Of a stretch of DNA of 64,000 nucleotides, positions 15,494-44,745 are shown one piece after another. Origin of the DNA: Candidatus Cloacimonadales bacterium (GTDB lineage Bacteria; Cloacimonadota; Cloacimonadia; Cloacimonadales; JAIOQZ01); the NCBI GenBank assembly GCA_963665815.1, contig OY762463.1:2944001-3008000 (forward strand), in the 5' to 3' direction. The notes below the pieces were generated by a model, which was not told where the DNA came from, did no database searches, and was given only the letters and a program-made list of their open reading frames with translations. Positions within the stretch are counted from its first letter, which is position 1. The number at the start of each line of letters is the position of its first letter. Position numbers and translations under genes: made by a program.

Positions 15494-17272
15494 CTACTGA
15501 TTCTTAATCCAGTTAACAAGTCCTTTTTTCTCAAGGATTTCCATTAATTTATCTGGCAGCGGAGCAAAAGTAAATTCTTTGTCTGCTACCGTAATCTTAC
15601 CATTCATGAAATCAACGTTTACATTGTCTCCCGGTTTGTATGCGTCTACAATCTCAGGATAAACTATAATAGGCAACCCCTGGTTGATTGATGAACGGTA
15701 GAAGATTCTGTTTACGGATTTACATATCACGGCTTTAACACCTGCATGAGCAAGTCCTACAGCAGGGTGCTCTCTCGAGCTTCCGCAACCGAAGTTGTCG
15801 CCTGTAACAATTACATCATCTTTCTGTACGTTATCTGTGAAGTTCACGTCAAAACCCTTGAACAGGTGCGGCATGATTGCTTCAGGATCAGAGCTCAGTA
15901 CGGTGTATGTCAGGTTTCCGGCAAACATCTGGTCTGTGTTCATGTTATCAATATCAGTGTAGTTCCATACGTTTCCGAGTCTTCTGTTATCATCTTCATT
16001 TACTTCGATTGTAGCAGCTTTCTCTTTTTTGTATGGGAATGCATCCTTAGTAGGGTTAGCACGTGGATCGGTAATCTCTCCCTTAAGAGCACTATGTGCT
16101 ACGCAGGCAGGAGAAGCGAGGTAGATTTGAGCTTCTTTATTACCCATTCTGCCAAAGAAGTTTCTGTTGGCAGTAGAGATAACTGTAACACCGTCTGCAG
16201 GGATTCCCTGTCCTGTTCCGAGGCATGGACCGCAGGATGAACCAAGGATACAAGCTCCGGCTTTAATGAAAGTCTGGATTATTCCTTCTTCCATAGCCTG
16301 AAGATAGATCTCCTGAGATGCAGGTGCAACGAGAAGCTGGAAGTCTTTGGCAATTTTTTTGCCTTCCAGAACTTTGGCAGCCTGTCTGAGATCGTCAAGA
16401 CGACCGTTTGTACAGGTTCCGATCAGTCCCTGCTGTACAGGTGTTCCTGCTACTTCAGCAACAGCTTTCACATTGTCTACCTGATGAGGTGCAGCCACAA
16501 GCGGATACAGCTCACTGAGGTTGATTTCTATTTCTTTGATGTATTCTGCATCAGGATCAGCCCAGACACCGTTCTCAATCTTATGACCGAGGAACTCTTC
16601 CAGAACTTCATCCGGTGGGAATACTGCGTTTTTAGCTCCCATTTCGGAAGCCAGGTTCGCCAGTGTCATTCTTTCTGATTGAGAAAGAGTTTTAACACCT
16701 TCACCATGATATTCTATTGAAAGATAGTTTGCACCTGCAGAACCAATCATTCCGATGATCCACAGGGATATATCTTTTGCGTATACGCCTTCGTTAAGCT
16801 TACCTGTAAGAGTTACCTTCATTGAGTCAGGCACTCTGAACCAGGTCTCACCGCGCTTCCAGATACCGGCGGATTCTGTTCTGTCGATTCCTGCAGCAAG
16901 AGCGTTGAATGATCCTGCTGTACAGGTGTGACTGTCAGATCCAACTACAATCATACCCGGTCTTGCATGGTAAGACATAATCTGGTGACAGATACCTTTT
17001 CCGGCATCGTAGAAGTTTTTAACTCCCTGATAGTTTACAATATCTCTGATAGTCTGATATTGTGTTGCCAGTTTAGCAGATGTAGGAGGAGCATTATGAT
17101 CAAGTACGATCAAAAGCTGATCAGGATCAGCAACTTTATCTCCACCCATTTTTTTGAATGTATTATGAATACTCGCTGTATTATCGTGAGTAAGTACAAT
17201 ATTCGGTTTTCTGAAAACAATTGCACCTTTCTCAGCACCGAGTACTTTTTCAACAAAAGTTTTTCCAGCCAT
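15494..17272 (-). CDS. Aconitase-family (homoaconitase/LeuC-LeuD-like) dehydratase, fused large and small subunits, canonical motifs
   Basis: LTHDNT, VLDHNAP, GICHQ, GSDSHTCT, IGTCTNGR, SSCGPCLG, STANRNF, then swivel domain NTDQM and NFGCGSSREHP. Confidence 0.9.
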   Translation of the reverse strand: MAGKTFVEKVLGAEKGAIVFRKPNIVLTHDNTASIHNTFKKMGGDKVADPDQLLIVLDHNAPPTSAKLATQYQTIRDIVNYQGVKNFYDAGKGICHQIMSYHARPGMIVVGSDSHTCTAGSFNALAAGIDRTESAGIWKRGETWFRVPDSMKVTLTGKLNEGVYAKDISLWIIGMIGSAGANYLSIEYHGEGVKTLSQSERMTLANLASEMGAKNAVFPPDEVLEEFLGHKIENGVWADPDAEYIKEIEINLSELYPLVAAPHQVDNVKAVAEVAGTPVQQGLIGTCTNGRLDDLRQAAKVLEGKKIAKDFQLLVAPASQEIYLQAMEEGIIQTFIKAGACILGSSCGPCLGTGQGIPADGVTVISTANRNFFGRMGNKEAQIYLASPACVAHSALKGEITDPRANPTKDAFPYKKEKAATIEVNEDDNRRLGNVWNYTDIDNMNTDQMFAGNLTYTVLSSDPEAIMPHLFKGFDVNFTDNVQKDDVIVTGDNFGCGSSREHPAVGLAHAGVKAVICKSVNRIFYRSSINQGLPIIVYPEIVDAYKPGDNVNVDFMNGKITVADKEFTFAPLPDKLMEILEKKGLVNWIKNQ

Positions 17273-17299
17273 GTTTTCTCCTTATAAAACCATTTCATT

Positions 17300-17545
17300 T
17301 GTGCTATCCTTCGACAAGCTCAGGATGACAAACTCAATCTTGTTCGGTCTGTAGAGCCGTAGCATGCTACGGCTATTATTACCCACACCATTCGCAAGGT
17401 TTTCAACCATTGCGAAGGGGTAAGTCATAGTTTGAGCGACCTTGCGAATGGTCTTAAGACCTTCGCAATGGTCAATCACTCAAAACTGTTTCATGTTTAC
17501 AATTCCACCATTCGCAAGGTTTTCAACCATTGCGAAGGTGCAGCA
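17300..17545. repeat. REP-like palindrome cluster inside the operon
   Basis: CCTTCGACAAGCTCAGGATGAC, GTAGAGCCGTAGCATGCTACGGCT (17351), two copies of CACCATTCGCAAGGTTTTCAACCATTGCGAAGG (~17387 and ~17506) and an inverted variant (~17440). Confidence 0.7.
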
Positions 17546-17554
17546 ATTAATTAT

Positions 17555-19360
17555 CTAACTGAATATACCACCACGGTGATAGATTTCCATCTGAACGTCT
17601 GAGAATTTATTTCCCTGAACTGTTTTACCCTTGGTTTTATTGGCTAATTCACCTGTTTCAAGGTTAACACTGATAATGTTACCGTCTTCAAGTTCCAGAG
17701 CATCAATAGAATCATAAGTAAGGATAGGGAATGCTGCATTGATTGCGTTTCTTTCGTAGATTGCACCGAAGGATTCAGCAACAACAGCCTGAACACCGAG
17801 AGCTTTGAAGCAATCCACAGCCTGTTGTCTGGAGCTACCGCTTCCGAAGTTCTTATGAACAACAACAATATCGCCTTTCTCCGCTCTTTTTGCGAAATCT
17901 TCGTATCCAGCCAGATTATCGAATGTATATTGTCCCATCTCGTTGATATCTGTGATAGCAAGGTATCTGTTGTGGTAAATCATGTCGGTATCAATATTAT
18001 CTTCTTTGATGTACCATACTTTTCCTTCCAGAACGAGTGGTTTTTCGGTAACTTCAGCTTTAGCTTTTGCAGCATGAGCTTCTTCTTTTACTTCTTTAGA
18101 AGTAAATACAGCAGGTTCAGCAGGAATTGCATCTGTTGTGGTTACATAACCGGCAACTGCAGAAGCTGCCACTGTAGCAGGAGATGCAAGATAAACGCTT
18201 CCTTTACCTTGTTTACCGGGGAAGTTTCTGTTACCGGTACTGATGGTGATTTCACCTTTACCATTCTGTCCAACCTGTCCTGCAGCACAACCGGCACAAC
18301 CGGCGTTAGAAACAAGAGCACCTGCTTTTTTGAATATCTCGATCAGTCCGTTTTCAAGACATTGATTCCATACTTCATCTGTAGATGGAACTATCTTGAG
18401 AACAACGCCCGGAGCTATTTTTCTGCCTTTAAGGATATCGGCAGCAGCTTTCATATCTTCATAACGTCCGTTTGTACATGATCCGATGAAAGCAGAGTCG
18501 ATTTTGATCTTGTCTTCAACAGGTACGGGAACAGAATCATGAGGAGCACCAGGTCTGGAAACCATAGGCTTAAATTCTGTAATATCAATAGTGAATTCTT
18601 CAGCGTACTCGGCATTTTCGTCAGCATAAACAGGCTCGATTTTCTTACCTGAACGTGCTTCACAGAAATCAATAACATCTTTATTTGGCGGGAACATTAC
18701 AATAATAGCACCCATTTCAGTACCCATGGAAGCAATGGTTATTCTTTCATCAAGAGTAAGCCCGTCGATTGCTTCACCGTACATTTCTACGGAGTAACCG
18801 AGAAGTGTATTAGCACCGAATTTATTCAGAAGGTTAAGCACGATATCCTTAGCGGAGATATTAGCAGCTTTTTTGCCTTCGAATGTGATTTTTGCTGATT
18901 TTGGAACTTTGAACCAGGTTTTACCGAAAGCCCAGGCAGCAGCAATGTCCTGATCTCCCATTCCCTGTCCGAATGCACCGACAGCACCGAGAATGTTAGC
19001 ATGAGAGTCAGTTGTTACAGTTGTTGATCCCGGAACAGCGAGACCTTCGTGGATTACTATATGAGTTCCGATTCCAACGTCGATATCAAATACCTTAATA
19101 GCATGATCTCTTGCGAAATCACGGCATATTTGCTGGTTTACAGCGTACTTCTGATCTGATCCGGTAGGATTACAGTCAAAAGTAAAGAAAGTCTTGGAAA
19201 CATCGTCTATCGGAAGGTTATTATCTTTGATGTTTTTTACAACATTAGCTCCGCCAAAGTCTCTGGCAGCTCTTACATCCATTCTTACATCAACGATATC
19301 ACCCGGTTTTACAACATCCTGATCTGAGTGATTAGCTAAAATTTTTTCAATAATTGTCAT
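17555..19360 (-). CDS. Second aconitase-family fused large+small protein with atypical active-site motifs
   Basis: Fe-S ligands intact (FIGSCTNGR, AGCAGC), but ARDFGG, TFDCNP, GIGTH, TDSHAN and GSSRQQA replace the canonical HD, DH, GICHQ, DSHT and GSSREH motifs. Confidence 0.85.
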   Translation of the reverse strand: MTIIEKILANHSDQDVVKPGDIVDVRMDVRAARDFGGANVVKNIKDNNLPIDDVSKTFFTFDCNPTGSDQKYAVNQQICRDFARDHAIKVFDIDVGIGTHIVIHEGLAVPGSTTVTTDSHANILGAVGAFGQGMGDQDIAAAWAFGKTWFKVPKSAKITFEGKKAANISAKDIVLNLLNKFGANTLLGYSVEMYGEAIDGLTLDERITIASMGTEMGAIIVMFPPNKDVIDFCEARSGKKIEPVYADENAEYAEEFTIDITEFKPMVSRPGAPHDSVPVPVEDKIKIDSAFIGSCTNGRYEDMKAAADILKGRKIAPGVVLKIVPSTDEVWNQCLENGLIEIFKKAGALVSNAGCAGCAAGQVGQNGKGEITISTGNRNFPGKQGKGSVYLASPATVAASAVAGYVTTTDAIPAEPAVFTSKEVKEEAHAAKAKAEVTEKPLVLEGKVWYIKEDNIDTDMIYHNRYLAITDINEMGQYTFDNLAGYEDFAKRAEKGDIVVVHKNFGSGSSRQQAVDCFKALGVQAVVAESFGAIYERNAINAAFPILTYDSIDALELEDGNIISVNLETGELANKTKGKTVQGNKFSDVQMEIYHRGGIFS

Positions 19361-19370
19361 ACACAGCCCC

Positions 19371-19937
19371 TTACTTAATCATAAGGCCTTTAGCCATCAT
19401 AACAAGCGGATTGAATGTCGCGAAGTCAGCTTGATGGATAAGAACAGTTTCAACTCTCTGAGGTCTGCCGTCACCTTCTTTAGCGTGGCAGGCGATTGTG
19501 TTAACAATCTCGTCACAGAGACCAACCTGAGCAGCAAGGATAGCACCAGAGAATGGGTGTCTTGCACATTTACCGTTATGTGATTTCTGGTATTTACCAT
19601 CTACACATTCGATTTCTTTGAGTTTACCGACATCATGAAGAAGTCCACCGGAGTAAAGGATGTCCATATCTATTTCATATGGCATAGCCTTGTATGTAGA
19701 TTTTTTAGCATCAGCCAGTGCTGCTGCACCGAGAGTTACAGCTATAGTGTGTTCAATAAGATTCACACCATGAGTTTCTGTAAGTAGAGTAAATGGTATT
19801 TTTTCAAGGTCTTCAGGTTTCCATCCACCTTCTTCTGCGCCTTTAACCCAGCATTCTACGGTTTTATTTTTGATATCTTCATCTTTGATTTTATTTAAAA
19901 TCGGAGCAAAAACTTTTTCAATATAATTCTTCATCAT
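19371..19937 (-). CDS. HD-domain (HDIG-like) metal-dependent phosphohydrolase
   Basis: LIEHTIAV, LLHDVGK, RHPFSG, IACH and HQADF motifs. Confidence 0.85.
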   Translation of the reverse strand: MMKNYIEKVFAPILNKIKDEDIKNKTVECWVKGAEEGGWKPEDLEKIPFTLLTETHGVNLIEHTIAVTLGAAALADAKKSTYKAMPYEIDMDILYSGGLLHDVGKLKEIECVDGKYQKSHNGKCARHPFSGAILAAQVGLCDEIVNTIACHAKEGDGRPQRVETVLIHQADFATFNPLVMMAKGLMIK

Positions 19938-19955
19938 TTCTCCTTTTTAGAAAAT

Positions 19956-19989
19956 AGACCCTTGTTGCTCCGAAGAGCAGCAAAGGTCT
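19956..19989 (-). other. Intra-operon stem-loop with cUUCGg tetraloop
   Basis: Minus strand reads AGACCTTTGCTGCTC-TTCG-GAGCAACAAGGGTCT followed by ATTTT. Confidence 0.6.
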
Positions 19990-20031
19990 GTAAATTAACA
20001 TCTATTACAGCTTATAAGAAAGCCGGTAATA

Positions 20032-21219
20032 TTATTTAAGTTTAGCAATAATTGCATCAGCCATTTCTGTAGTTGAAGCAGCTCCCTGATTAAGAACTTC
20101 TTGAGAACCGCGAAGTTTAAGCATATCGTAAGCTTGTACTTTACCTTCTTCAATTACTTCTGCAACAGCTTTTCTGATTTTTGCAGCCATTTCTTTTTCA
20201 TCGATATGATCAAGCATCATACATGCTGAAAGAACCATAGCGATAGGATTAACAATTGATGGGCTGAAGTTTTCGTATTTTGGAGCTGAACCGTGAGTAG
20301 GTTCGAAAATAGCTACTTCTTTACCAATGTTAGCACTACAAGCGAATCCGAGACCACCAACGAGTCCTGCGAAACCATCAGAAACGATATCACCGAACAT
20401 GTTTCCGGCTACGATTACACCGTAAGTTTCAGGATTTTTTGTAAGCCACATCATTTGTGCATCGATGTTTGTGTTCCAGAGATCGATTCCGGGATATTCT
20501 TTTGCTATTTCTTTTGCGAGTGCAAGCATCATACCGGATGTTTCTCTGATTACGTTTGGTTTTTCACAAAGTGTTACGCTTTTGTAACCGAACTTCTCAG
20601 CATATTCAAAAGCAGCTCTTACGATTCTTTCTGTGTACTTTTTTGTAAAAATACGAGTAGAAACTGAGAGTTCTTCTTTTGGACACCATGCAAAGTTTTT
20701 CATTTTTGGGTGTGTGTTAATTGCGTTGTAAACTTCATCACTTGGATTAGTCCACTCAACACCACCGTAAAGACCTTCTGTATTCTGACGGAATACTACA
20801 ACATCAACTTCTGGTTCTTCGATTGTGTTGTTTGGTCCTTTGCGGATGAAGTTAAGAGGGTTGTTTTTGAATGTACGACATGGACGTGTACAGATATCTA
20901 AGTCAAAGTGTTGACGTAATGCAACGATGGGACTGTAGTAAACATAGCCTTTGTCCTGAAGTTCAGGAGCAAGTTCTGCTGCAGCATCAGATTTTGGTTT
21001 TGATGTGATCGCTCCAAAAAGACTGATTTTGTGTTCTTCAAGTAAATCCAGTGTTCTTTGTGGTAAAGGATTACCTTCTTTACACCAGAATTCCCATCCG
21101 ATATCTGCATGTACGTAGTTTGCTTCGAAACCTGCTGCTTCGAGTACTCTTACAGCTTCAGGTAAAACAACTTTTCCAATACCATCTCCGGGCATTAAAA
21201 CTATTGTTCTTTTAGACAT
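20032..21219 (-). CDS. Beta-decarboxylating dehydrogenase, most like homoisocitrate dehydrogenase
   Basis: PGDGIG, LFGAITS, YYSPIVALRQ (compare fungal Lys12 YSSPIVALR), RQNTEGLY, KPNV, NMFGDIVSD, FEPTHGSAP. Confidence 0.8.
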   Translation of the reverse strand: MSKRTIVLMPGDGIGKVVLPEAVRVLEAAGFEANYVHADIGWEFWCKEGNPLPQRTLDLLEEHKISLFGAITSKPKSDAAAELAPELQDKGYVYYSPIVALRQHFDLDICTRPCRTFKNNPLNFIRKGPNNTIEEPEVDVVVFRQNTEGLYGGVEWTNPSDEVYNAINTHPKMKNFAWCPKEELSVSTRIFTKKYTERIVRAAFEYAEKFGYKSVTLCEKPNVIRETSGMMLALAKEIAKEYPGIDLWNTNIDAQMMWLTKNPETYGVIVAGNMFGDIVSDGFAGLVGGLGFACSANIGKEVAIFEPTHGSAPKYENFSPSIVNPIAMVLSACMMLDHIDEKEMAAKIRKAVAEVIEEGKVQAYDMLKLRGSQEVLNQGAASTTEMADAIIAKLK

Positions 21220-21267
21220 AGTTCCTCCTTAAATAATAACTATTTGTCTTATTTTATTTTTATTGTT

Positions 21268-22842
21268 CTAATCTAATACTTCTCTGACACTGTCGATGAT
21301 TGTTCCGTCTACCCATTTAATTGCAGCAACAACTTTGTCACCAAGTTTCGGATTATCCGGAACACCGCAGATTCTTTCTGCTTCATCTTTCAGTTCTTCG
21401 ATTGTTTTTATAGGAAGTCCTGAGCCTTTCACTTTATCAATAAGATCCTGACGTTTAGGATTAATTGCAATTCCGCGTTCTGTAACGATAACATCTACCA
21501 GTTCTCCCGGTCCACAGATTGTTGTGACAGCTTCACGTATGACAGGAAGCCTATCTCTGAACAGCGGAATAGGAAGGATAGTACACTTAGCGTGCAGACA
21601 GTTCTGCCATCCACCGATACCATGAAGAAGATAACCGTCTGAGTGTGTTGCAACATTACCGTTATAATTAACGTCAACTTCTGTTGCACCGAGTATCATA
21701 ACGTCCATCATGGTGGTGTAATTACCTTTACCGTGGAAATCATAGCAATGGAATATGGAAATATCCTGATGGTTTGTGTTATCTCTCATTGATCTTACTG
21801 CTTCAAGGTCAAATGTCTGAGCATCCATCATAATATCAAGGTAGCCTTCTTCCAGCATTTTTACGGAATACTGAGTAGATCCACCAACAGCAAAACGCGC
21901 TCTGATGTTACGTTTCTTCAGCATTTCGTGGAAGTAAATACCAATTGCAAGAGATGTTCCGCCTGCTCCTGCCTGGAAGCAGAAACCATCGTAGATGAGT
22001 CCTGCAGCATCACAGAATCTCGCTGTAAGATCAGCTATTCTGAGTCTGTCCGGGCTTTTGGTAATCTGAGTTGTACCGGAAACGATTTTTTCAGGGATAC
22101 CGATTTTATCGAATTTAACAACCTGATCAACATAGTTTCCTTCTACCTGCATTGGAAGGCATGGAAAATCTACGAGGTTATCTGTTACAATCATTACATG
22201 TTCAGCATAATGATAATCTGCCAGAGCGTAACCGAGTCCACCACATGCGGATGGTCCGTACATACCGTTTGCATTACCAAATTTATCTGCTGAAGGAGCA
22301 GCAATAACAGCGATGTCAATCACTACTTCACCATCCTGAATAGCCTGATATCTTCCACCGTGGGATCTGAGAATTGCCATTCCACGCATTTTACCTTTAG
22401 AGCAGTAGCGACCGAGAGGTCCGTTCATGGAACCTTCTATATGATGTATAGTACCATCTTCAAGGTAATCAATAATTTCTGCATGACATGGGAATGATGC
22501 TGATGGGAACCATACAAGGTCCTTTACTCCCAGTTCAGATGCTATTGAGAATACCTGATTAGCAACAAGGTCACCATTTCTGAGGTGGTGATGAGTGGAA
22601 ATAACCATTCCGTCTTTCAGACCTGCATTCTGAAGAGCTCTTTTAAGGTTTTCTCTTTCGCTGCCGACATCTATAACTTTGTTACCGTCTGCAGGATAAT
22701 CCAGAGAAGTAGAAATTTTTGGTCCGAATTTTCTTCCGGTAGGTCTGTGCTGACCAACACCTTTAAAAGCAACTTCTTCTTTTCCATTTATTTCCGTAGG
22801 AACTAAGCGTCCTACTGCATTTTTTACGAGATTTACTGACAT
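21268..22842 (-). CDS. citF: Citrate lyase alpha subunit-like CoA/ACP transferase
   Basis: STHHHLRNGD, LRSHGGR, ACGGLGYA, QAGAGG, ILGATEVD, DVIVTERGIAINP and DGTIID are CitF family motifs. Confidence 0.9.
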   Translation of the reverse strand: MSVNLVKNAVGRLVPTEINGKEEVAFKGVGQHRPTGRKFGPKISTSLDYPADGNKVIDVGSERENLKRALQNAGLKDGMVISTHHHLRNGDLVANQVFSIASELGVKDLVWFPSASFPCHAEIIDYLEDGTIHHIEGSMNGPLGRYCSKGKMRGMAILRSHGGRYQAIQDGEVVIDIAVIAAPSADKFGNANGMYGPSACGGLGYALADYHYAEHVMIVTDNLVDFPCLPMQVEGNYVDQVVKFDKIGIPEKIVSGTTQITKSPDRLRIADLTARFCDAAGLIYDGFCFQAGAGGTSLAIGIYFHEMLKKRNIRARFAVGGSTQYSVKMLEEGYLDIMMDAQTFDLEAVRSMRDNTNHQDISIFHCYDFHGKGNYTTMMDVMILGATEVDVNYNGNVATHSDGYLLHGIGGWQNCLHAKCTILPIPLFRDRLPVIREAVTTICGPGELVDVIVTERGIAINPKRQDLIDKVKGSGLPIKTIEELKDEAERICGVPDNPKLGDKVVAAIKWVDGTIIDSVREVLD

Positions 22843-24062
22843 AATTCTTCCCTCCAGTTTTCAGCGAGGATACCTGATTTGATAGCCATATCGATTGTTC
22901 TTTCTGCTCTTTTCACAACAGGCGGATCAATCATTTTTGACCCGAGAGATACAACTCCAAGTCCTTTTTCTGTTGCTTCTATGAAAGCATTCACGATTTT
23001 TTTAGCTTTATCGATTTCTTTTTCATTTGGAGCAAAGTATCTGTGAATTACATCAATCTGACGTGGGTGAATACAGCCCATTCCGTCAAATCCAAGTGAT
23101 TTTGATTCCAGAATAACATCTCTGAGAGCATCCATATCGGAAACATCTGAGAATACGGAGTCAATAGGCTGAATACCGGCTGCTCTGGCAGCGTTTACAA
23201 CCTGTGAACGTGCGAAGAATGTTTCTCTTCCTTCTTTAGTTCTCTGTGTTCCAAGGTCTGCTGTGTAGTCTTCAAGCCCTATTGCCAGAGATACAACATT
23301 ATCAGATGCTGTAGCAATTTCGTATGCTTTGAGTACGCCCATAGCACTTTCGATGATAGGCATGTAGTACACAGGATAATCCATGTTATTTTCTTTCTGG
23401 ATTCTTTTTACTTCATCTTCTACCTGTACAACATGATCTTTTGATTCACATTTTGGAATCAGGATTAGATTTACATTGTAAGGTACAATATATTTAAGAT
23501 CTTCAAGTCCCATCGGAACCTGATTAATTCTTACCATTCTTTCTGCTCCGTACAGTATGCAGGCGAGGAGGGTATTCCTTACGAGAATACGTGCTTCTCC
23601 TTTTTTTGCATGAGCAACAGAGTCTTCCAGATCAAGAATCAGTCCGTCAGGAGAATGAACTCCGGCATTAATAGCCAATTTAGGAGTATTACCCGGAAGA
23701 TAAAGTCTTGATCTTCTGTAACGGTCTTTTTCTGTGTGATATTTGTTTTCAGGAAGCATTTCCGGCAGATACATCTTGTCAGTATCTTTTATCTGCTTAA
23801 CGGCATATTCGATACGTGCCGCCATAACATATTCCAGTGCTCCAGAATCAACAATTTTGACATCAGCATTTTCGATATCAAAGAAACGGATTACTTTTTC
23901 TGCAAATTTTTCAATCTGTGCTCCAAAGAGTATCTTGACTTTACTTTGCAGATCAATCTTGATACCTCCGGATTCTGTCAGTTCTATTTCAACATAACAG
24001 TCGGAACGAACAGATTTACCTTGATTTCCGGCTTTACCTATCTTTGCCAATTCTTCCTCCAT
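22833..24062 (-). CDS. citE: Fusion of a CitD-like ACP domain and a CitE citryl-CoA lyase-like domain
   Basis: N-terminal ~90 aa are CitD-like (AGNQGKSVRSDCYVEI, FGAQI, DSGALEYVMAARIE). The rest is CitE-like (RRSRLYLPG, LDLEDSV, IIES, IGLEDY, CIHPRQI, KMIDPP). Confidence 0.85.
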   Translation of the reverse strand: MEEELAKIGKAGNQGKSVRSDCYVEIELTESGGIKIDLQSKVKILFGAQIEKFAEKVIRFFDIENADVKIVDSGALEYVMAARIEYAVKQIKDTDKMYLPEMLPENKYHTEKDRYRRSRLYLPGNTPKLAINAGVHSPDGLILDLEDSVAHAKKGEARILVRNTLLACILYGAERMVRINQVPMGLEDLKYIVPYNVNLILIPKCESKDHVVQVEDEVKRIQKENNMDYPVYYMPIIESAMGVLKAYEIATASDNVVSLAIGLEDYTADLGTQRTKEGRETFFARSQVVNAARAAGIQPIDSVFSDVSDMDALRDVILESKSLGFDGMGCIHPRQIDVIHRYFAPNEKEIDKAKKIVNAFIEATEKGLGVVSLGSKMIDPPVVKRAERTIDMAIKSGILAENWREELCQ

Positions 24063-24065
24063 GTT

Positions 24066-25358
24066 TTATAAGTATTTTTCTAAGAATTTATATTCGTCTT
24101 CAAGTTTACCGTTATGGGCAATACAAGCTTTTCTTATTTCGAAAGGCAGGTCTGAATCTTTTATTTGTTTGCTGTAATCATTCAGTAATGTTGCTTCCAT
24201 AAACGGCATTAACGCAGCTGAGAATGAATCTGAAGCTTCTCTGGAAAACTCACAAGGCAGATTATCAACTGCACAGTCTGCAAAGCCTTCACCTTCGAAA
24301 CCATCCTGAATCTCACTTGTTTCAGCATTGTAGACAAACACAGGTTTGTCCGGATATGTAGCCTTAACTGTAGGTTCGACTGATCCGTTAATGTCACAGG
24401 TTATATCTCCTATTATAATCATTTTCTGATCTTTGCCTTGTACTTTTTTTAATTCTTCACGAGGTAAAAATACAGGATAGTCAGGAGTCCAGTATATTGC
24501 GTTAACGTAAATTGAAGTATGTTTGATGTATGGTGCGAAAATTGATTTGTATTCTTTGCCGTTTTTAAAGTAGTGTTGTAGATCAAAATCTGAGCCGTCT
24601 TTTCTTGCAGCAAGATGATGCTCTTTAAATACAACAACATAAAGCTTCTTGTTAGAGTAATTACCTTTCAGTTTTTCCAGTTCTTCCGGCTGAATATACT
24701 CTATAGGTAATGTCTCGAGTACTTCACGGCAACCACGTGCAACATGTCCGTATCCAAGTAGCATTATGTTGAATGGTGCAAGCTCTTCAGGTAGTCCGTT
24801 TGTACTGATTTCTTCTCCGATTACTTTCAGTTCTTCCAGAGCATTCTCTAAAGAAGAATACTCATATGACTGTTTAACTTTAAGGAATGGTGTTTCAATA
24901 CCGTTTTGTTTGAGTAGACGCTGTCCTGCTCCCCATAAAGTATCAATCATTCCGGCGTTTCCTGCGAATTTGCCGAAGAATACAAGTCTTTTTCCATCTT
25001 TGTTAACAATTCGTTCGTAGTCGAGTAATGTAGTTTTGGTATCGAGAAACTTCTGAAGTAAAGGCATGTTATAATCCTGCCCTTTGATTGTATGTGAAAA
25101 GAATAAGTGAGGGATTCCGGGGATAATTTTATCAATTGGAATCTCTTTTACTCCTGAAATAAAATCACAATCAGATAAATCTTCTGAGAACACTGCACCT
25201 GCTTTTTCATATTCATCCTGCGTATAAATACGTATATCAGATGGTTGAATAACAACTTCAAATCCTTTTTCCACAAGAGTTTTCACCGCTTCAGGATTAA
25301 GTGCAACGCGTCTTTCCCATTTGTTCTTTGTTTCTTTCATGATACCAAGTTTCTTCAT
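24066..25358 (-). CDS. Lysine-ketoglutarate reductase / saccharopine dehydrogenase (lysine-forming) family, AASS LKR-domain-like
   Basis: WERRVAL, IQPS..R, GVKE, FFSHTIKGQ..NM, LLDYE, FGKFAGNAGMID, GQRLL..TPFL, GDITCD, VDNLPCE, EASDSFS. AAGGAG RBS before 25358. Confidence 0.85.
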   Translation of the reverse strand: MKKLGIMKETKNKWERRVALNPEAVKTLVEKGFEVVIQPSDIRIYTQDEYEKAGAVFSEDLSDCDFISGVKEIPIDKIIPGIPHLFFSHTIKGQDYNMPLLQKFLDTKTTLLDYERIVNKDGKRLVFFGKFAGNAGMIDTLWGAGQRLLKQNGIETPFLKVKQSYEYSSLENALEELKVIGEEISTNGLPEELAPFNIMLLGYGHVARGCREVLETLPIEYIQPEELEKLKGNYSNKKLYVVVFKEHHLAARKDGSDFDLQHYFKNGKEYKSIFAPYIKHTSIYVNAIYWTPDYPVFLPREELKKVQGKDQKMIIIGDITCDINGSVEPTVKATYPDKPVFVYNAETSEIQDGFEGEGFADCAVDNLPCEFSREASDSFSAALMPFMEATLLNDYSKQIKDSDLPFEIRKACIAHNGKLEDEYKFLEKYL

Positions 25359-25403
25359 TAGCAAGCTCCTTTCGAATTCAAAATTTTATTTATAACCAGA
25401 TTT

Positions 25404-26726
25404 CTAGTTATAGTATTTTTCTTTAATGTGAATACCAAGTTCTTCAAGTTCTTTAAGAACAGGTTCGTAAATATCAGCAGTTTTAGGCATGAGAACACCT
25501 TTTCTGGTAATTTTGCCACTGAGTATAAGATGTACACCGATTGCGAGAGGAAGTGCAACAGTTCTAGACATGGATGAGTCTCCATTTGGAATACCGTAAT
25601 CAATCATGGTTGATGTAATACGTTGTTCTTTACCATTAAACTCTGCAACAAACTCATGATGAAGCACAAGCAGGTCTCTTTCACCTTCTTCATAAGACAT
25701 TTTATCCAGCATCAATGCTGTAAGAACGTCAATCGCTCCACCTTTTTTAATAGGAATTGGTGTTTCATCAAAGAATCCAAGCCATCCCATCTTCTTGAGG
25801 ACAATGCCCTTAGGATTGAGATTAAGCTTTTCAGCAAGAATTTTCTCAAGATTATCTGAGTTATCAAGTTTCATGATTTTTTCAGCGATGAAATCACGAA
25901 CTGTTCCTGTGAGGTTGTCATGAATTACTTCTTCCGAGAAGAATCCAAGCTGACCGAATACGTACCATAAGTCACAATGACTGATATTTCTGAATGTTCC
26001 TCTGTACATTGTTTTAACGTGTTTAAGATCGTAAAGATCAATGTAACTGAGTGAATCTCTGTTAGGATAAGCTTCCAGTGTTCCGTATCCTGGAACATCT
26101 ACCAGCCAGTAGTGAGAGAACAGGTTTTTACCTTCGATCTCTACAACTTTTCCGTCACGGAGATATTTTGCATTATTTGATGCAGCAGAAAGTACACCTT
26201 TTGGTGCCCATGAGAATTTGTATCCAAGTGGATTGGTGTTAGCTTCAGGAGCAGGAAGTCCACCGCAATATGACATGAATGATACAATTTTTCCGCCCTT
26301 TTCTTCCACTTCGTGGAATATTTTCATGGCAGACATGTGATCTATACCAGGGTCAACCCCGATTTCGTTAAGTATTGTAATTCCGTTTTCAACAGCCTGA
26401 TCATGCATTGCACGCATTGCCGGGCTTATGTAGGAAGCAGTAGCCATGTTAACTTTATGCTTAATACATTTTTCAGCAACTACAGGATGCATGAATGCCG
26501 GCAGAATACTGACAACGATGTCTTTTCCGATAATATACTCGTCAAGCGAATCAGAGTTTGATCCGTCAATTTGAACTGCTGTCACGTTTGAGTATGGTTT
26601 TGCAAGCTTTTCAGCTTTTTCAAGTATGATGTCCGCAAGGACGATTTCGTAATTGTGTTCCGCTAAATAGTCTACGAGAGGTTTGGAAACCAAACCGGCA
26701 CCGAAAATTGTAACTTTTTTCGACAT
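25404..26726 (-). CDS. Saccharopine dehydrogenase/reductase (glutamate-forming; Lys9/AASS SDH-like)
   Basis: GAGLVS Rossmann motif, TASY, NEIGVDPGIDHMSA, SYCGGLPAPE, NPLGYKFSW, EAYPNRDS, RGTFR, MSRTV. Confidence 0.92.
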   Translation of the reverse strand: MSKKVTIFGAGLVSKPLVDYLAEHNYEIVLADIILEKAEKLAKPYSNVTAVQIDGSNSDSLDEYIIGKDIVVSILPAFMHPVVAEKCIKHKVNMATASYISPAMRAMHDQAVENGITILNEIGVDPGIDHMSAMKIFHEVEEKGGKIVSFMSYCGGLPAPEANTNPLGYKFSWAPKGVLSAASNNAKYLRDGKVVEIEGKNLFSHYWLVDVPGYGTLEAYPNRDSLSYIDLYDLKHVKTMYRGTFRNISHCDLWYVFGQLGFFSEEVIHDNLTGTVRDFIAEKIMKLDNSDNLEKILAEKLNLNPKGIVLKKMGWLGFFDETPIPIKKGGAIDVLTALMLDKMSYEEGERDLLVLHHEFVAEFNGKEQRITSTMIDYGIPNGDSSMSRTVALPLAIGVHLILSGKITRKGVLMPKTADIYEPVLKELEELGIHIKEKYYN

Positions 26727-27212
26727 GAATCCTCCAAATTTTTACAACTTGGAGAAAAAGTTTCACTTTCCAGAAAATGATGTCAATGATTTAAATGAAA
26801 ATATGGATCTTTTAATTTTAATCTCACATCTTAAATAAAATTGCGTTCGTTAATATTCAGGGAAATATTCAAGTTCAAATAATGATTCTCTCAAGAGCTG
26901 TTTAATCGCTTTATAATTCAAATTGAAAAATATCATGTAAAATACGAAAAACCCTATTTGTTAAATAACAAAACAAATAAGCAAACTGTAATACTATGAT
27001 ATTCAGAATGTTAATACTGCGAAATGTAAAATAAGTATTTTCCGGAATGCAAATAATATACATAAATTACTTTTTGAAAGTAACCTCCAAAGACATCATT
27101 ATATACTTCCTGTTTTTTCCTCGTATTTCTTACAAGATTTTTTTTGATTGACACTCAGAAAAATTTGTATCAGTTTATGTACAAATACTTTTAAACTTGC
27201 AAAGGAGAATGT

Positions 27213-29486
27213 ATGAAAAAAACTATTATACTATTATTGTTTGTGTCAATTTACATGTTTTTGTCATCTGTAGATGTACAGAATCAGGTTCAGAAATTAA
27301 TGGCAAGTGATGGAGAAAACAGCGATTATATGGGTTGTTCAGTTGATATTGACGGTAATTGGCTTGTTGTCGGAGCTAAAGGCGATAATGACTATGGTGA
27401 AAGCAGTTGATCAGCTTATGTGTTTCAGTATGACAATGGAACATGGTCTCAGCATTCAAAGCTTGTTGCGGGAAGCGGTAATATGCATGATGACTTTGGC
27501 TATTCTGTTGCAATCTCAGGAAGCTATATTGTAGTTGGTTGTCCGGGAGATGACAATGCAGTCAACGATGTAGGTTCTGTCTATATATATCACTATGATA
27601 ACAATAACTGGACATTCATGACTGTACTTTATGCTTATGATGCTGCTTACGCAGACTATTATGGAAACTGTGTAGATATTTCGGGTAATTATGCAGTTGT
27701 TGGAGCTTATGGTGATGATGATGGAGGATCAGAATCAGGATCAGCCTACGTTTACGAGCTCAGTAATGGGAATTGGATATTCGACACAAAACTAACTGCC
27801 TCAAATCCTTCTTCCGGTGATAATTTCGCCTACTCTGTTAGTATTGACGGTGACAGAATAATATGTGGATCAGACAGAGAAGACAGCCGAGGTTATAATT
27901 CCGGTCTGGCTTACATTTATCAGCTTCAGAATGGTAACTGGCTGGAAAGATGGACAGTTTATGGAGCAGATACCTGGAGTGAAGAGCATTTTGGTATTGC
28001 TGTTAATATCAATGGTGATTATGCAATTGCTGGTGCAACGGGACAGGATGATAATGGAGATGATTCAGGTTGTGCTTATATCTATCACTATAATAATGAT
28101 GCATGGTATCAGCAGACAAAACTTGTTCCATCCGATGGAGCAGAGAATACAAGATTCGGAAGTTCAGTATCAACTTACGGAAATTCTGCAGTGATAGGTG
28201 CAATAATGGATAATGCTCAAGGTAGTATGTCCGGTGCAGCATACATTTTTCAGTTGGACAGTGGAAACTGGGTAGAAAGAAAAAAGATGCTTCCATCTGA
28301 TGGGGCTGCCATGGACTTCTTTGGAGGCAACGTAGCAATGTATGGAGCTAAAGCAGTTGTAAGCTGCGAACGAGATGATACTAATGCATCTGATGCAGGT
28401 GCAGCTTATATGTATACTATTGCAAATTATTATGTTCCACCTTCAGCACAGCAGGAAGTTGTGTCAGCAGATGACACTTCGGAAATACCCTTTAACGATG
28501 TTGAAGTAAGCTTAAGATTTACAGGAAGCCATGTAGAAACAACAATAGATTTAACTAAGAATTTTCAGGAACCAAATGTAGTTGGAGGATTACCTGCAGG
28601 AGTTGTTAATCTGGCGAAAAACTACTGGCAAGTTGAATCTTCTGCGGGGAATGTCGGAACTTATGACATAACTTTCGATCTTAGTGGAGTTTCAGGAATT
28701 GAAAACTTTGCTACACTAAAGATTCTCAAGAGAGATGACGACAGCTCTCCATGGCAGGATGTAGTTGCTGATCTGGGAGCAACTCTTGTTTATAACAATC
28801 CTTATATCACTGTGCAGGGATTAAACGCCTTCTCAGAGTTTGTACCGGCAGGAGATAATGACAACTCACTTCCTGTTACTCTATCTTTCTTCAATGCAGT
28901 TCAGACTTCTGATAATAACGTTCTTATTGAATGGAGTACTGCTTCCGAAACTGAAATGAATGGATTTAACCTTTATAGAAACAACGAAAACAATAAAACT
29001 AATGTGGCTTTAGTAAATACTCAGATTATTAACTGCAATAATTCTTCAACAGGTGGAACATACAGCATAAGAGATTTCGATGTTGATTATAATAATACTT
29101 ATTACTACTGGTTGGAAAGTGTTTCTCTTGATGGCAATAGTGATTTCTACGGACCTGTCAGAGTTACAATTGAGAAGAAAAAAGATGATGATAATCCTGT
29201 AGAATTTATAAAACTTGGAATCCAGGGAATCTATCCCAATCCATTCAATCCTGAAACAAACATAGATTACTCTGTTAAGGAAGAAACAGCAGTTCAGGTT
29301 TCAGTATATAACATGAAAGGTCAGAGAGTTAAGACTCTGGTGGATAAATCTGTTTCAGCAGGTGATCATAAAGTGGTCTGGCAAGGTGACTCAGATTCAG
29401 GAAATTCTGTATCATCCGGTGTATACTTTGTGAAGATGATTACAGGGAACCACATAGAAACTCGTAAGATTGTGCTGATGAAATAA
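27213..29486 (+). pseudogene. Secreted FG-GAP-repeat beta-propeller protein with T9SS/FlgD-like CTD, interrupted by one in-frame TGA (27408-27410)
   Basis: ORFs 27213-27410 and 27420-29486 are in the same frame. ESS*SAYV aligns with sibling repeats such as ESGSAYV. Signal peptide at the start, YPNPFNPET CTD at the end. Confidence 0.8.
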
Positions 29487-31485: not shown

Positions 31486-31541
31486 GAAAGCTTTGCATAA
31501 TTGCAAAATCGAGTCAACTACACCGATCAGGCAAAGATCTC
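31486..31541 (-). mobile_element. MITE family A, short copy in reverse orientation
   Basis: Reverse complement reads GAGATCTTTGCCTGATCGGTGTAGTTGACTCGATTTT...TTATGCAAAGCTTTC. 5-bp direct repeat ATTCA on both sides. Confidence 0.7.
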
Positions 31542-31573
31542 ATTCATTAAAAGTAAAAACAAAAGGGGTAATT

Positions 31574-31897
31574 ATGAAAAAGAGAATTCATCTTGATTCA
31601 TTCCATGTTGCCGGATTCCAGTACTACAATGGGGCATCTGTCTGGGCAGAGCTGGAGTTGGGGACAAAGCTGGACTTAGTTCCGGAACCTGAAAACAGAC
31701 ATGATGAACATGCTGTGGCAATCACGTACAAAAACAGTAAAATAGGATTTGTTCCATCTCAGAGGAATACTATGCTGGCAAAGCTTTTGAATGCAGGATA
31801 TCTGAGCAGAGCATTGGAATTGATCGTACAGAAAAAAGATTCAAGTGAACATACTGAAAGACAATTGTATGTAGGATTGTTTATCAAAGAAAAATAG
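31574..31897 (+). CDS. HIRAN domain protein
   Basis: FHVAGFQYY, L.PEPENRHDEHAVAI, KIGFVP. GGGG RBS before 31574. Confidence 0.88.
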   Translation: MKKRIHLDSFHVAGFQYYNGASVWAELELGTKLDLVPEPENRHDEHAVAITYKNSKIGFVPSQRNTMLAKLLNAGYLSRALELIVQKKDSSEHTERQLYVGLFIKEK

Positions 31898-31918
31898 CGT
31901 ATTTGAAATCAATAATAA

Positions 31919-31949
31919 AAAAGGACTTCCTTTTTGAGGGAAGTCCTTT
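31919..31949 (+). terminator. Terminator hairpin after the HIRAN gene
   Basis: AAAGGACTTCC ... GGAAGTCCTTT stem. Confidence 0.7.
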
Positions 31950-31959
31950 AATATTTATG

Positions 31960-33252
31960 GGCACCGCCCCCTAAAGTGTGTCTGATTTGACAAGAAATAG
32001 AAAAGAATCTCCAATAGTAAAAAAGAGCCAAAAGGAGGTTCTTATGAAATTGACAACAAGTCAATTGAGTATTGTGTTAGACACGGCAATTGTCGAACAC
32101 GGATTAAACAACGTATTGGAAACAATACTAAACTGTTTGATGAAATTAGAGTGGACAGAATTTTTACGTCAAACAATATCTTCAAAAAACAAAGGGAATG
32201 GTTATAGAATAGGTAAAGCTATCGGCTTGGGAGCAGAGATAAAGCTTCAAATTCCAAGAGATATACTCGGTCAATTCTATCCAATATTGCTCACATTGAT
32301 CAGAAACCAGGAAGAAGAACTTCATCAACTTGCATTCACTTTATATTCCAAGGGTCTTTCAGTACGAGATGTAAGTGATGTATTTGATAAACTGTATGGT
32401 TCGAAGTATTCCAAGTCAAATGTAAGTAGAATAAATCAAAGTTTTGTTAAAGAAATGGAATTATGGAGAAACAGACAATTAGATGTTAGTTATCCACTGT
32501 TTATGGTAGATGCAATACATACCAGAATACGCAGGTCACCTAAGGCAGAAGTAGAAGCAATTTGAACAGTTATGGGATTACGTAGTGATATGAGCAGAGA
32601 TATATTAGCCATAGAAAGCATCCCACAAGAGAGTGCTTCTGGCTGGGAATCATTATTCTCAAGTTTGTAAGATCGAGGATTAGAATCTGTCAATTTAGTA
32701 ATTGCTGATGGTTTAATGGGACTTGAACAAAGTATTGCAAACGTCTTTCCGGGTGCAGCGTTCCAGAAATGTGTAACTCATTTTAAACGTAATATATTAA
32801 ACAAAACAAGGTACTCGGACAGGGCTGAAATAGCTGCTGATTTGAAACTTATTTTGTTACTAATGACTCAGGATATAAAATATCAAATGCGATCGAGAAC
32901 TTTGAAAACTTCATTACAAAATGGATGAAAACATATCCCTTCATAAGAAGATATAGAAACAGATCAGGCTTAATTTACAATTTTACATATTTGAATTATG
33001 ACTACAGAATAAGAAGTATGATCTATACAACCAACTGGATAGAAAACCTTAATAAACAGTTCAGAAGAGTTCTGAAAATAAAAAACTCAATGCCTTCTAA
33101 TGAATCTGCTTTGCTTCTTATTAGTAAAATAGCAATGGATAAATAGAAAAATATTTACAATATCCTCTGTAGACTTTTAAATTTGACGATAATAATATGA
33201 TATAAATTAAAAATATAGATGAGGTTCTATACACACTTATTAGGACAGTCCC
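31960..33252 (+). mobile_element. IS256-family insertion sequence, degenerate
   Basis: Imperfect 22-bp terminal inverted repeats (GGCACCGCCCCCTAAAGTGTGT vs GGGACTGTCCTAATAAGTGTGT, 15/22) and 8-bp target duplication TATTTATG (31952-31959 and 33253-33260). Confidence 0.88.
32044..33146 (+). pseudogene. IS256-family transposase pseudogene
   Basis: NGYR, IPRD, LYSKGLSVRD, VDAI, ADGL.GL, QKCVTHFKRN, IYTTNWIENLN. In-frame stops at 32563 and 32668, plus a frameshift between ~32845 and 32925. Confidence 0.88.
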
Positions 33253-44378: not shown

Positions 44379-44669
44379 ATGAAAAAGAAAGGTTTGTTGC
44401 TTAAGATTATTATAATATGCAGTATTGTATATATTGCTTTTTTTGATAAAGCCAGTTTTGTGCAGGTTTTCAAATCTAAGATGAGATACAAAAAATTGAA
44501 AAATGAGTCTGAAAGAATTGCGAGGGAGAACGAAAATCTGCGTAACAAGAATGAGAAACTGAAGAATGACCCATTCGAGTGGGAACGTATAGCACGTGAA
44601 AAACTTGGTATGCAGAAAGAAGGAGAAAACGTTTACAGATTTTATAATGACAAGGATGAAAAAAAATAA
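44379..44669 (+). CDS. Septum formation initiator (FtsB/DivIC family)
   Basis: N-terminal TM helix, coiled coil, ERIAREKLGM..GE motif. Confidence 0.85.
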   Translation: MKKKGLLLKIIIICSIVYIAFFDKASFVQVFKSKMRYKKLKNESERIARENENLRNKNEKLKNDPFEWERIAREKLGMQKEGENVYRFYNDKDEKK

Positions 44670-44745
44670 TTTGAGAATTGACAATAAAAAGAATATGAAT
44701 AAATTTAATATGCAAAATTTCACAAAACATGAAAGGAGATTACTT

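Follow-up and report, generated by a model that had tools for sequence, protein, structure and literature searches.

The window analysed here, a 64,000-nucleotide stretch (G000:C1:2944001-3008000) of the single-contig, 3.96 Mb chromosome of a member of the Cloacimonadota (98.7% complete), contains an operon of eight open reading frames (ORFs), all on the minus strand (window positions 15494-26726). The operon combines homologues of the two enzymes of the saccharopine pathway with an acyl carrier protein (ACP)-type lyase, a β-decarboxylating dehydrogenase, a small HD-fold protein and two aconitase-family hydro-lyases. We consider it somewhat more probable than the alternatives taken together that this operon encodes most of a route of anaerobic lysine breakdown, in which lysine would be converted into 2-oxoadipate, and 2-oxoadipate, through homoisocitrate and homocitrate, into acetate and 2-oxoglutarate, the final cleavage being catalysed by an ACP-type "homocitrate lyase". 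Searches of the literature found no description of a homocitrate lyase, of such an operon or of the saccharopine pathway in Cloacimonadota, in agreement with the original prediction, made from the sequence alone, that the combination is undescribed.

Gene families were assigned by Pfam and NCBIfam profile searches, and NCBIfam scores are given in bits against the curated cut-offs. G000 designates the genome of the window, other G numbers the genomes compared with it, and L numbers the loci fetched from those genomes. The families, their linkage, their co-occurrence and the presence or absence of accessory genes are direct observations. The ORF positions and the profile matches confirmed the eight co-oriented genes of the original prediction, in the same places and families, in the order SDH, LKR, CitDE, CitF, ICDHl, HD, Acn2, Acn1; the successive intergenic gaps are 39, 3, -10, 48, 94, 10 and 282 nt.

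SDH (25404-26726, 440 amino acids, aa) is a glutamate-forming saccharopine dehydrogenase of the Lys9/AASS-SDH type, as judged from Pfam (Sacchrp_dh_NADP, 3.8e-23; Sacchrp_dh_C, 6.6e-83) and from full-length matches in the Protein Data Bank (PDB) to yeast Lys9 (2axq, 2.3e-93), Magnaporthe saccharopine reductase (1e5l, 2.6e-90) and the SDH domain of human AASS (5l78, 8.7e-82). LKR (24066-25364, 432 aa) is a lysine-2-oxoglutarate reductase of the AASS-LKR type; its residues 6-429 align with the LKR domain of human AASS (8dda, E = 2.1e-81), and it matches Pfam AlaDh_PNT_N (6.6e-24), whereas the similarity to the fungal Lys1 type is confined to the N-terminal 130 residues or so (4e-18). Both proteins are therefore full-length homologues of their AASS-type counterparts. 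LKR would join lysine and 2-oxoglutarate to form saccharopine, which SDH would split into 2-aminoadipate 6-semialdehyde (AASA) and glutamate. The semialdehyde would then be oxidized to 2-aminoadipate by a dehydrogenase encoded outside the operon, for which the genome offers a candidate: the aldehyde dehydrogenase (ALDH) at G000:C1:716836-718383 exceeds the cut-off of the L-piperidine-6-carboxylate (P6C) dehydrogenase equivalog NF050084 (781 vs 730 bits), and is 62% identical to the ALDH adjoining LKR-SDH in two Ignavibacteriota loci. Its own gene neighbours were uninformative. An aminotransferase would finally convert 2-aminoadipate into 2-oxoadipate.

The next two genes account for the α (CitF), β (CitE) and γ (CitD) subunits of the citrate lyase complex. 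CitDE (22833-24062, 409 aa) is a fusion of a CitD-type acyl carrier (residues ~8-97, family match at 20-90) with a CitE-type lyase (residues ~114-398, CitE/HpcH_HpaI match at 117-333); it scores 64.8 bits with TIGR01608 (citD, cut-off 63.5) and 277 bits with TIGR01588 (citE, cut-off 443), and its identity to the E. coli proteins is 24% for CitD and 39% for CitE. CitF (21268-22842, 524 aa; Pfam CitF, 1.5e-134), a CitF-type acyl-ACP:carboxylate transferase, is 37% identical to E. coli CitF and 61-67% identical to its Ignavibacteriota orthologues. In the ACP domain, S20-D21-C22 is invariant in eight orthologues from two phyla; in a gap-free alignment, residue 14 of E. coli CitD, which we take to be the serine carrying the prosthetic group, falls one position before S20. 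CitF would exchange the acyl group, turning acetyl-S-ACP and homocitrate into homocitryl-S-ACP and acetate, and CitE would cleave homocitryl-S-ACP to acetyl-S-ACP and 2-oxoglutarate, thereby regenerating the co-substrate of LKR. The geometry of CitE-family enzymes is of the Si type, citrate (pro-3S)-lyase and (S)-citramalyl-coenzyme A (CoA) lyase being examples, and the acetyl-derived arm of a Si-type product sits where a single aconitase-type isomerase does not attack. In some Cloacimonadota clusters, CitF is accompanied by a tandem paralogue (L029:9011-12163 in G030, L058, L059), the paralogues being 58-66% identical to the CitF of the window.

Between 2-oxoadipate and homocitrate, the proposed route needs a dehydrogenase and the isomerization of homoisocitrate. 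ICDHl (20032-21219, 395 aa; Pfam Iso_dh, 1.9e-77) is an Iso_dh-family β-decarboxylating dehydrogenase which remains below the cut-off of every equivalog. Its best NCBIfam matches are to AksF homoisocitrate dehydrogenase (278 and 266 bits, AksF cut-off 500); with the isocitrate dehydrogenase (IDH) models, whose cut-offs are 432-585, it reaches 122-242 bits. In the PDB, it is most similar to an NAD-IDH (6lky) and to the homoisocitrate dehydrogenase (HICDH) of Thermus (3asj). Asn115 of E. coli IDH is replaced by Ile, which Thermus HICDH likewise has there, and IDH Ser113, a contact of the distal carboxylate, is kept. An alignment directed at the S. pombe homoisocitrate dehydrogenase, made with a 67-residue query, matched IDH chains only. 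The protein has 69-83% identity across the two phyla, and would act as a homoisocitrate dehydrogenase working backwards, i.e. in the reductive carboxylation of 2-oxoadipate to homoisocitrate.

The two hydro-lyases, Acn2 (17555-19360, 601 aa) and Acn1 (15494-17272, 592 aa), are both aconitase-family LeuC-LeuD fusions according to Pfam and NCBIfam. They are 33% identical to each other; in both, the three cysteines of the Fe-S cluster and a GSSR(E/Q) motif are retained (GSSRE in Acn1, GSSRQ in Acn2). Acn1 is above the cut-off of hacA_fam (486.9 vs 385.7 bits) and below those of HacA_Meth (417 vs 550) and TIGR00139 (326 vs 530); Acn2 exceeds the cut-off of PRK00402 (406.7 vs 385) and falls short of that of hacA_fam (369.6 vs 385.7). 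Acn1 is predicted to dehydrate homoisocitrate to cis-homoaconitate, and Acn2 to hydrate the latter to homocitrate, probably in the form of the S enantiomer that a Si-type CitE would require. The HD protein (19371-19937, 188 aa; Pfam HD, 5.9e-11) lies between dehydrogenase and hydratases in both phyla. It has no sequence match in the PDB, and its predicted model (predicted local distance difference test score 84) has YhaM as the best fold match (template modelling score 0.68), the other matches being to the generic HD fold. The His of the HD dyad is kept in the copy of the window and absent in five of the eight orthologues aligned.

Taken together, Iso_dh, Acn1, Acn2, CitF and CitDE would run the upper aminoadipate pathway backwards, and the net process would be the conversion of lysine, 2-oxoglutarate and CO2 into two glutamate and one acetate, with the gain of one NAD(P)H. 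It should be noted that we infer every substrate, the direction, the stereochemistry and the assignment of the hydratases to the two half-reactions.

The arrangement of the operon is conserved. CitF orthologues occur in 11 of the 41 Cloacimonadales genomes, i.e. in all eight of the family of the window and in three out of five of a second family. LKR, the aconitase family (PF00330) and the Iso_dh family (PF00180) are each found in the same 11 genomes and in none of the other 30; this co-occurrence is inflated by kinship, even though the split also runs within one family (3/5). Among the loci of the ten relatives, seven have the complete eight-gene order (one with a second CitF), with 57-83% protein identity outside the genus, two are cut by contig ends, and one consists of seven genes without an adjacent SDH. 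Because the same order, at this level of identity, extends to other genera and to a second family, the arrangement cannot be attributed to chance. A scan of species genomes by LKR alignment, which included the genomes of the relatives, gave 80 loci, 43 of which are of the Cloacimonadota type (57-95% identity). Where at least 1.5 kb follows LKR (37 Cloacimonadota-type loci), the next gene is CitDE in 32 loci, another module follows in four and unrelated genes in one. The conservation of the neighbourhood, which the original prediction had proposed as a check, was thus verified, SDH and LKR being kept with the other six genes in seven of the ten relatives' loci. P6C dehydrogenase orthologues (at least 63% identity) are absent from all of the 30 genomes devoid of the cluster; their frequency among the cluster genomes is considered below. 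In seven loci from metagenome-assembled genomes, an ORF of ~680-700 aa is inserted between CitF and the dehydrogenase (L032:9704-11815, L034:11692-13749, L058:16202-18256, L072:5907-7952, and L036, L046 and L061); the four that were scanned code for M23 peptidases that are secreted and carry a C-terminal sorting domain for type IX secretion.

The module is also present in Ignavibacteriota. Three genomes of this phylum, reached through their LKR loci, contain in one cluster ICDHl (70-74% identity), the HD protein (37-40%), CitDE (55-61%) and CitF (61-64%), along with an aconitase-family protein of 655-658 aa and an MmgE/PrpD-family protein of 477-479 aa. The former scores 873-877 bits with the homoaconitase equivalog TIGR00139 (cut-off 530), but only 362-376 bits with the aconitate hydratase model (cut-off 612); it is slightly nearer to Acn1 than to Acn2 (311 vs 262 bits). 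The PrpD-like protein scores 63-90 bits against PrpD cut-offs of 458-950. No PrpD-family protein was found in the 11 cluster-bearing Cloacimonadota genomes, where Acn2 and Acn1 stand in its stead. Two different (de)hydratases are therefore always kept, and Acn1 and Acn2, instead of being a (homo)aconitase with a spare copy, are most likely a functional pair which is replaced in the other phylum by the PrpD-like and Lys4-like proteins, the PrpD-like one presumably taking the step of Acn2. In one Ignavibacteriota genome (G041), the dehydrogenase and HD genes of the module are separated by a gene for a CstA-family transporter (L133:3456-5090); the module is there some 4 kb away from an ALDH-SDH-LKR group of convergent orientation.

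These data bear on the question of whether the substrate of the module is simply citrate. The cluster could specify a citrate lyase that works independently of ATP, with an aconitase and an isocitrate dehydrogenase, serving citrate fermentation, a reductive branch of the tricarboxylic acid (TCA) cycle (2-oxoglutarate and CO2 to citrate, and this to acetate and oxaloacetate) or the supply of 2-oxoglutarate to LKR. The orthologous pair of Ignavibacterium album, IALB_1146/1147 (CitF and CitE-CitD), was indeed named ATP-independent citrate lyase in the corresponding passage of the genome paper, where citrate fermentation or an unconventional reverse TCA cycle was suggested (PMC3362086). The genes neighbouring the pair go unmentioned in the citrate lyase, TCA cycle and lysine passages of that paper (PMC3362086). 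Moreover, CitF reaches 498.5 bits with TIGR01584, within 3 bits of the citrate lyase equivalog cut-off (501.45), CitD is above its own cut-off, and G000 has neither a citrate synthase nor any further gene of the aconitase or Iso_dh families. We nevertheless regard this explanation as unlikely. For citrate, one aconitase would be sufficient, while the methylcitrate cycle uses PrpD and an aconitase, and fungi use an aconitase and Lys4 for homocitrate; yet both phyla have kept two (de)hydratases that differ from each other, and the Ignavibacteriota one belongs to the homoaconitase and not to the aconitate hydratase equivalog. Acn1 and Acn2 themselves score only 399 and 313 bits with the aconitate hydratase model PRK07229 (cut-off 612). 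In addition, canonical citrate enzymes exist beside the cluster in other genomes. G040 has a separate operon (L140:4394-9062) for citrate synthase, aconitate hydratase and NADP-IDH, all above cut-offs, and G030 has a separate equivalog-level aconitate hydratase (L141:5594-10823), followed by a 432-aa ORF without family match at E 1e-30 and by another of 615 aa, which matches succinate-CoA ligase α weakly and below the cut-off; the sizes of these two ORFs are similar to those of the subunits of ATP-citrate lyase or citryl-CoA synthetase. An ICDHl-type gene (~260-270 bits) and an Iso_dh homologue of the size of canonical IDH (~420 aa) occur together in four of 13 genomes on the Ignavibacteriota side. 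Aconitase and IDH are wholly absent from the 30 relatives lacking the cluster; the citrate transporter, CitC, CitG and CitX of the E. coli operon were not found; and a citrate pathway would leave the linkage to LKR-SDH without a reason. The Ile that ICDHl has in place of Asn115 of E. coli IDH likewise disfavours a simple citrate function. The context of the module thus points to a C7 substrate rather than to citrate.

As to the direction of the pathway, lysine biosynthesis has to be considered, with CitDEF standing in for homocitrate synthase and 2-oxoglutarate and acetate being converted into 2-oxoadipate or aminoadipate, and ultimately into lysine. Every step of the module is reversible in principle, and the genome does not contain a homocitrate synthase: the absence noted for the window in the original prediction holds genome-wide, as the only two HMGL-like matches are biotin-carrying carboxyltransferases of the OadA/PYC type, so that G000 is devoid of homocitrate, isopropylmalate, citramalate and Re-citrate synthases. 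Only one of the 41 genomes of the order, and not G000, has a LysA match that reaches the cut-off, whereas DapB is present in 37; it thus seems that the order as a whole, whether its members carry the cluster or not, cannot form lysine from diaminopimelate with the usual enzyme. In I. album, lysC, asd and dapABD are given as unidentified in the lysine passage of the genome paper (PMC3362086). However, the LysA gap is not specific to the cluster, because 29 of the 30 cluster-less relatives likewise lack a match above the cut-off. Weaker LysA matches (140-230 bits) occur in 17 of these 30 and in one of the 11 cluster genomes, besides an 85-bit fragment; since they track families, no conclusion was drawn from the seemingly complementary distribution of LysA and the cluster. 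The search for an aminoadipate reductase, of the Lys2/CAR type or any other known one, was negative, NAD_binding_4 (PF07993) giving at most 55 bits, in frames of 283-420 aa, in five cluster genomes, and the semialdehyde enzyme that is present is an oxidizing P6C dehydrogenase. Finally, joining free acetate to a 2-oxoacid is, unless a thioester is hydrolysed, unfavourable at the concentrations found in cells, as is known from the thermodynamics of citrate lyase.

The module that replaces the Cit and Acn genes behind SDH-LKR in four of the 37 loci (L043:5468-14672, L049, L051, L055) also argues for breakdown. There, LKR is followed by genes for a 535-aa KamA-family-like radical SAM protein (83 bits, below cut-off), a 3-oxoacid CoA transferase of the PcaI/J type, a class III aminotransferase and a thiolase, the last being a 3-oxoadipyl-CoA thiolase of the PcaF equivalog (661 vs 597 bits). 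A tblastn search of G000 detected none of the KamA-like, CoA-transferase and thiolase genes. This module suggests a separate, possibly undescribed catabolic outlet for the aminoadipate skeleton, by which aminoadipate would be converted into 3-aminoadipate, 3-oxoadipate and then succinyl-CoA and acetyl-CoA, and a module terminating in a thiolase does not fit biosynthesis; a second module acting on the adipate skeleton supports the view that SDH-LKR starts lysine breakdown in Cloacimonadota. In 13 Cloacimonadota loci (L031:4020-4694 and 12 more), the gene immediately upstream of SDH, in the same orientation, encodes an SdpI/YfhL and DUF1648 membrane protein, with either type of module downstream; this gene is not upstream of SDH in the window, and a 49% identical homologue is located at ~2.214 Mb of the genome.

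Lysine synthesis with a thioester-conserving CitE/CitF, which was the second of the two models originally put forward, thus appears improbable, given the lack of a Lys2/CAR-type reductase, the oxidizing ALDH, the catabolic AASS type of LKR and a LysA gap that is independent of the cluster. The first model, i.e. the reversed route that regenerates 2-oxoglutarate, is favoured by the linkage, the co-occurrence, the P6C dehydrogenase and the Lys4-type homoaconitase, except for one of its products: because an ACP-type CitDEF lyase releases acetate via acetyl-ACP, the acetyl-CoA of that model finds no support.

Besides the score of CitF, which lies so close to the citrate lyase cut-off, several observations weigh against the breakdown of lysine through homocitrate. 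P6C dehydrogenase orthologues are found in only five of the 11 cluster genomes. The original prediction had placed both the semialdehyde oxidoreductase and the aminotransferase outside the window, and while a candidate for the former was located, no aminoadipate aminotransferase was, the sole class III aminotransferase of the genome being an ornithine aminotransferase (class I was not surveyed). SDH is not adjacent to LKR in four loci (L048, L050, L053, L064). Outside the Cloacimonadota type, CitF and CitDE lie within 10 kb of LKR in only one of 37 loci; and among 81 genomes on the Ignavibacteriota side, 64 have CitF and 40 have LKR, with 36 having both, 28 only CitF, four only LKR and 13 neither (Fisher p = 0.027, not corrected for kinship). 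CitF being often present without LKR, the module does not depend on LKR in those genomes. As for the ACP, CitG (PF01874) and CitX (PF03802) were found in none of five cluster genomes, nor was CitG in any of 31 genomes on the Ignavibacteriota side; CitC (PF08218) gave one 24-bit match in a 175-aa frame of G000 and none in the other four cluster genomes. Since CitG and CitX are needed for the known prosthetic group, the proposed route does not account for the activation of the ACP domain or for the source of its thiol, which raises a separate cofactor question.

The specificity positions that can be read may weigh against a C7 tricarboxylate as well. Arg85 of Thermus HICDH, a specificity determinant of that enzyme, is replaced by Val in ICDHl. 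The small-subunit specificity loop reads YLAI in Acn2 and YTVL in Acn1, compared with YLRT in the homoaconitase of M. jannaschii, whose Arg is the specificity residue, and YNLT in the P. horikoshii protein; the two loops of the operon lack the methanogen Arg and resemble the YLVY loop of isopropylmalate isomerase. Judging from these residues, which are hydrophobic in Acn1, Acn2 and ICDHl alike, the three enzymes would accommodate an alkyl side chain at least equally well. It is therefore conceivable that the module shortens or lengthens another 2-oxoacid with an uncharged side chain, interconverting 2-oxobutyrate and pyruvate via (S)-citramalate, or 4-methyl-2-oxopentanoate and 2-oxoisovalerate. 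An ACP-dependent citramalate lyase of the same α/β/γ design is described for Clostridium tetanomorphum in the part of the literature source that deals with it (PMC9196870). Such a function would, however, not explain why the module is joined to LKR-SDH in an operon in 32 of the 37 loci, why the Lys4-type protein matches the homoaconitase equivalog and why there is a parallel 3-oxoadipyl-CoA module, and it does not accord with the retention in ICDHl of Ser113, the contact of the distal carboxylate; we consider it quite improbable.

The route from lysine to acetate through homocitrate may be part of a broader picture, which we put forward as a tentative, somewhat doubtful generalization. It would be an oxygen- and CoA-independent fermentation of lysine, widespread in anaerobic bacteria of the Fibrobacteres-Chlorobi-Bacteroidetes (FCB) group, that converts lysine and CO2 into glutamate, acetate and ammonia via (S)-homocitrate. 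It would employ a new homocitrate lyase, whose ACP would be activated without CitG and CitX, possibly with the help of the HD protein, and interchangeable isomerase pairs (two fused HacAB-like proteins, or a PrpD-like and a Lys4-like protein), and a sister route would lead via 3-aminoadipate and 3-oxoadipyl-CoA.

If the proposed route is correct, bacteria would have a third way of breaking down lysine, in addition to the 3,5-diaminohexanoate fermentation and the glutaryl-CoA routes. CO2 would be consumed and 2-oxoglutarate given back, so that lysine would enter metabolism as glutamate and acetate. The homocitrate lyase and the pair of homocitrate dehydratase and hydratase would be new enzymes, and the "ATP-independent citrate lyase" of Ignavibacterium, discussed as a possible enzyme of the reverse TCA cycle, would have another role. 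Models of amino acid turnover by Cloacimonadota in anaerobic digesters and sediments would change as well.

Some further features of the window deserve mention. The 282-nt spacer between Acn2 and Acn1 (17273-17554, minus strand) contains short palindromic repeat units, as read from the sequence; a 33-nt unit occurs at two places in it and at four more elsewhere in the genome (with up to four mismatches), and in another genus the spacer measures only ~40 nt. An AT-rich intergenic region (26727-27240, minus strand) lies 5′ of SDH and is presumed to hold the promoter; a promoter and terminator scan gave site counts not above those of shuffled sequence. With Rfam, neither a riboswitch, for lysine or otherwise, nor any other RNA reached the gathering score in the window, and the only hits at 26600-27450 were at chance level (E 0.39-0.72). 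About 5 kb upstream of the operon (31493-32565), a HIRAN-domain ORF precedes a Mutator-family transposase fragment of 195 aa. Type IX secretion C-terminal sorting domains are found in four large ORFs (27420-29486, 33375-35978, 44596-48231 and 59646-61283), either alone or with FG-GAP, PKD or CarboxypepD_reg domains; these sorting domains indicate that the host belongs to the FCB group. Calx-beta is the sole domain match of a large ORF at 4553-10006 (1817 aa), and a hydrolase of the YgeY family, linked to selenium metabolism, is encoded at 51748-52941 (equivalog level, 497 vs 321 bits), adjoining a PFK-family gene.

Among known systems, the upper α-aminoadipate pathway of fungi and Thermus uses the same families for isomerization and for the β-decarboxylating dehydrogenase, with two enzymes for the two halves of the isomerization, and the Ignavibacteriota module shares with it an equivalog-level Lys4-type protein. 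It differs in having a homocitrate synthase, in whose place the operon has a CitDEF-type ACP lyase, with the direction proposed to be reversed; Acn1, Acn2 and ICDHl are below all equivalog cut-offs, and a Si-type lyase predicts the opposite enantiomer of homocitrate. The α, β and γ parts are like those of the citrate lyase CitDEF (EC 4.1.3.6) of E. coli and Klebsiella and of the citramalate lyase of C. tetanomorphum, and the sequence of acyl exchange and cleavage is presumably alike; a common α/β/γ-ACP design of citrate and citramalate lyases is set out in the passages of the source on these enzymes (PMC9196870). In the present module, however, CitD is fused to CitE and an HD protein is always present; its subunits are 24-39% identical to those of E. 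coli citrate lyase, as against 55-65% between the Cloacimonadota and Ignavibacteriota modules, and it was not found with the CitC, CitG, CitX and citrate carrier genes of the E. coli operon.

The entry into the pathway is shared with the saccharopine catabolism of lysine in animals and plants (AASS and ALDH7A1), which uses the same LKR, SDH and P6C/AASA dehydrogenase families, and which has reportedly been observed in Ruegeria pomeroyi. Here, by contrast, LKR and SDH are separate genes, and the lyase module replaces the 2-oxoadipate dehydrogenase leading to glutaryl-CoA (glutaryl-CoA enzymes were not searched for). In the methylcitrate cycle (PrpC, PrpD, aconitase, PrpB), a PrpD-family dehydratase is paired with an aconitase-family hydratase to isomerize a product of Si-type condensation or cleavage, as in the Ignavibacteriota version of the module; the end enzyme is in our case a dehydrogenase and not a lyase, and Cloacimonadota use a second aconitase-family protein and no PrpD. 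The closest parallel in logic is offered by the reductive branch of the TCA cycle, in which, one carbon shorter, a 2-oxoacid and CO2 give a hydroxy-tricarboxylate, which is then split into an acetyl unit and a shorter 2-oxoacid. Compared with that branch, the cleavage in the lysine pathway proposed here would be ATP-independent and ACP-bound, its substrate would probably be a C7 acid, and its purpose would be catabolic rather than autotrophic.

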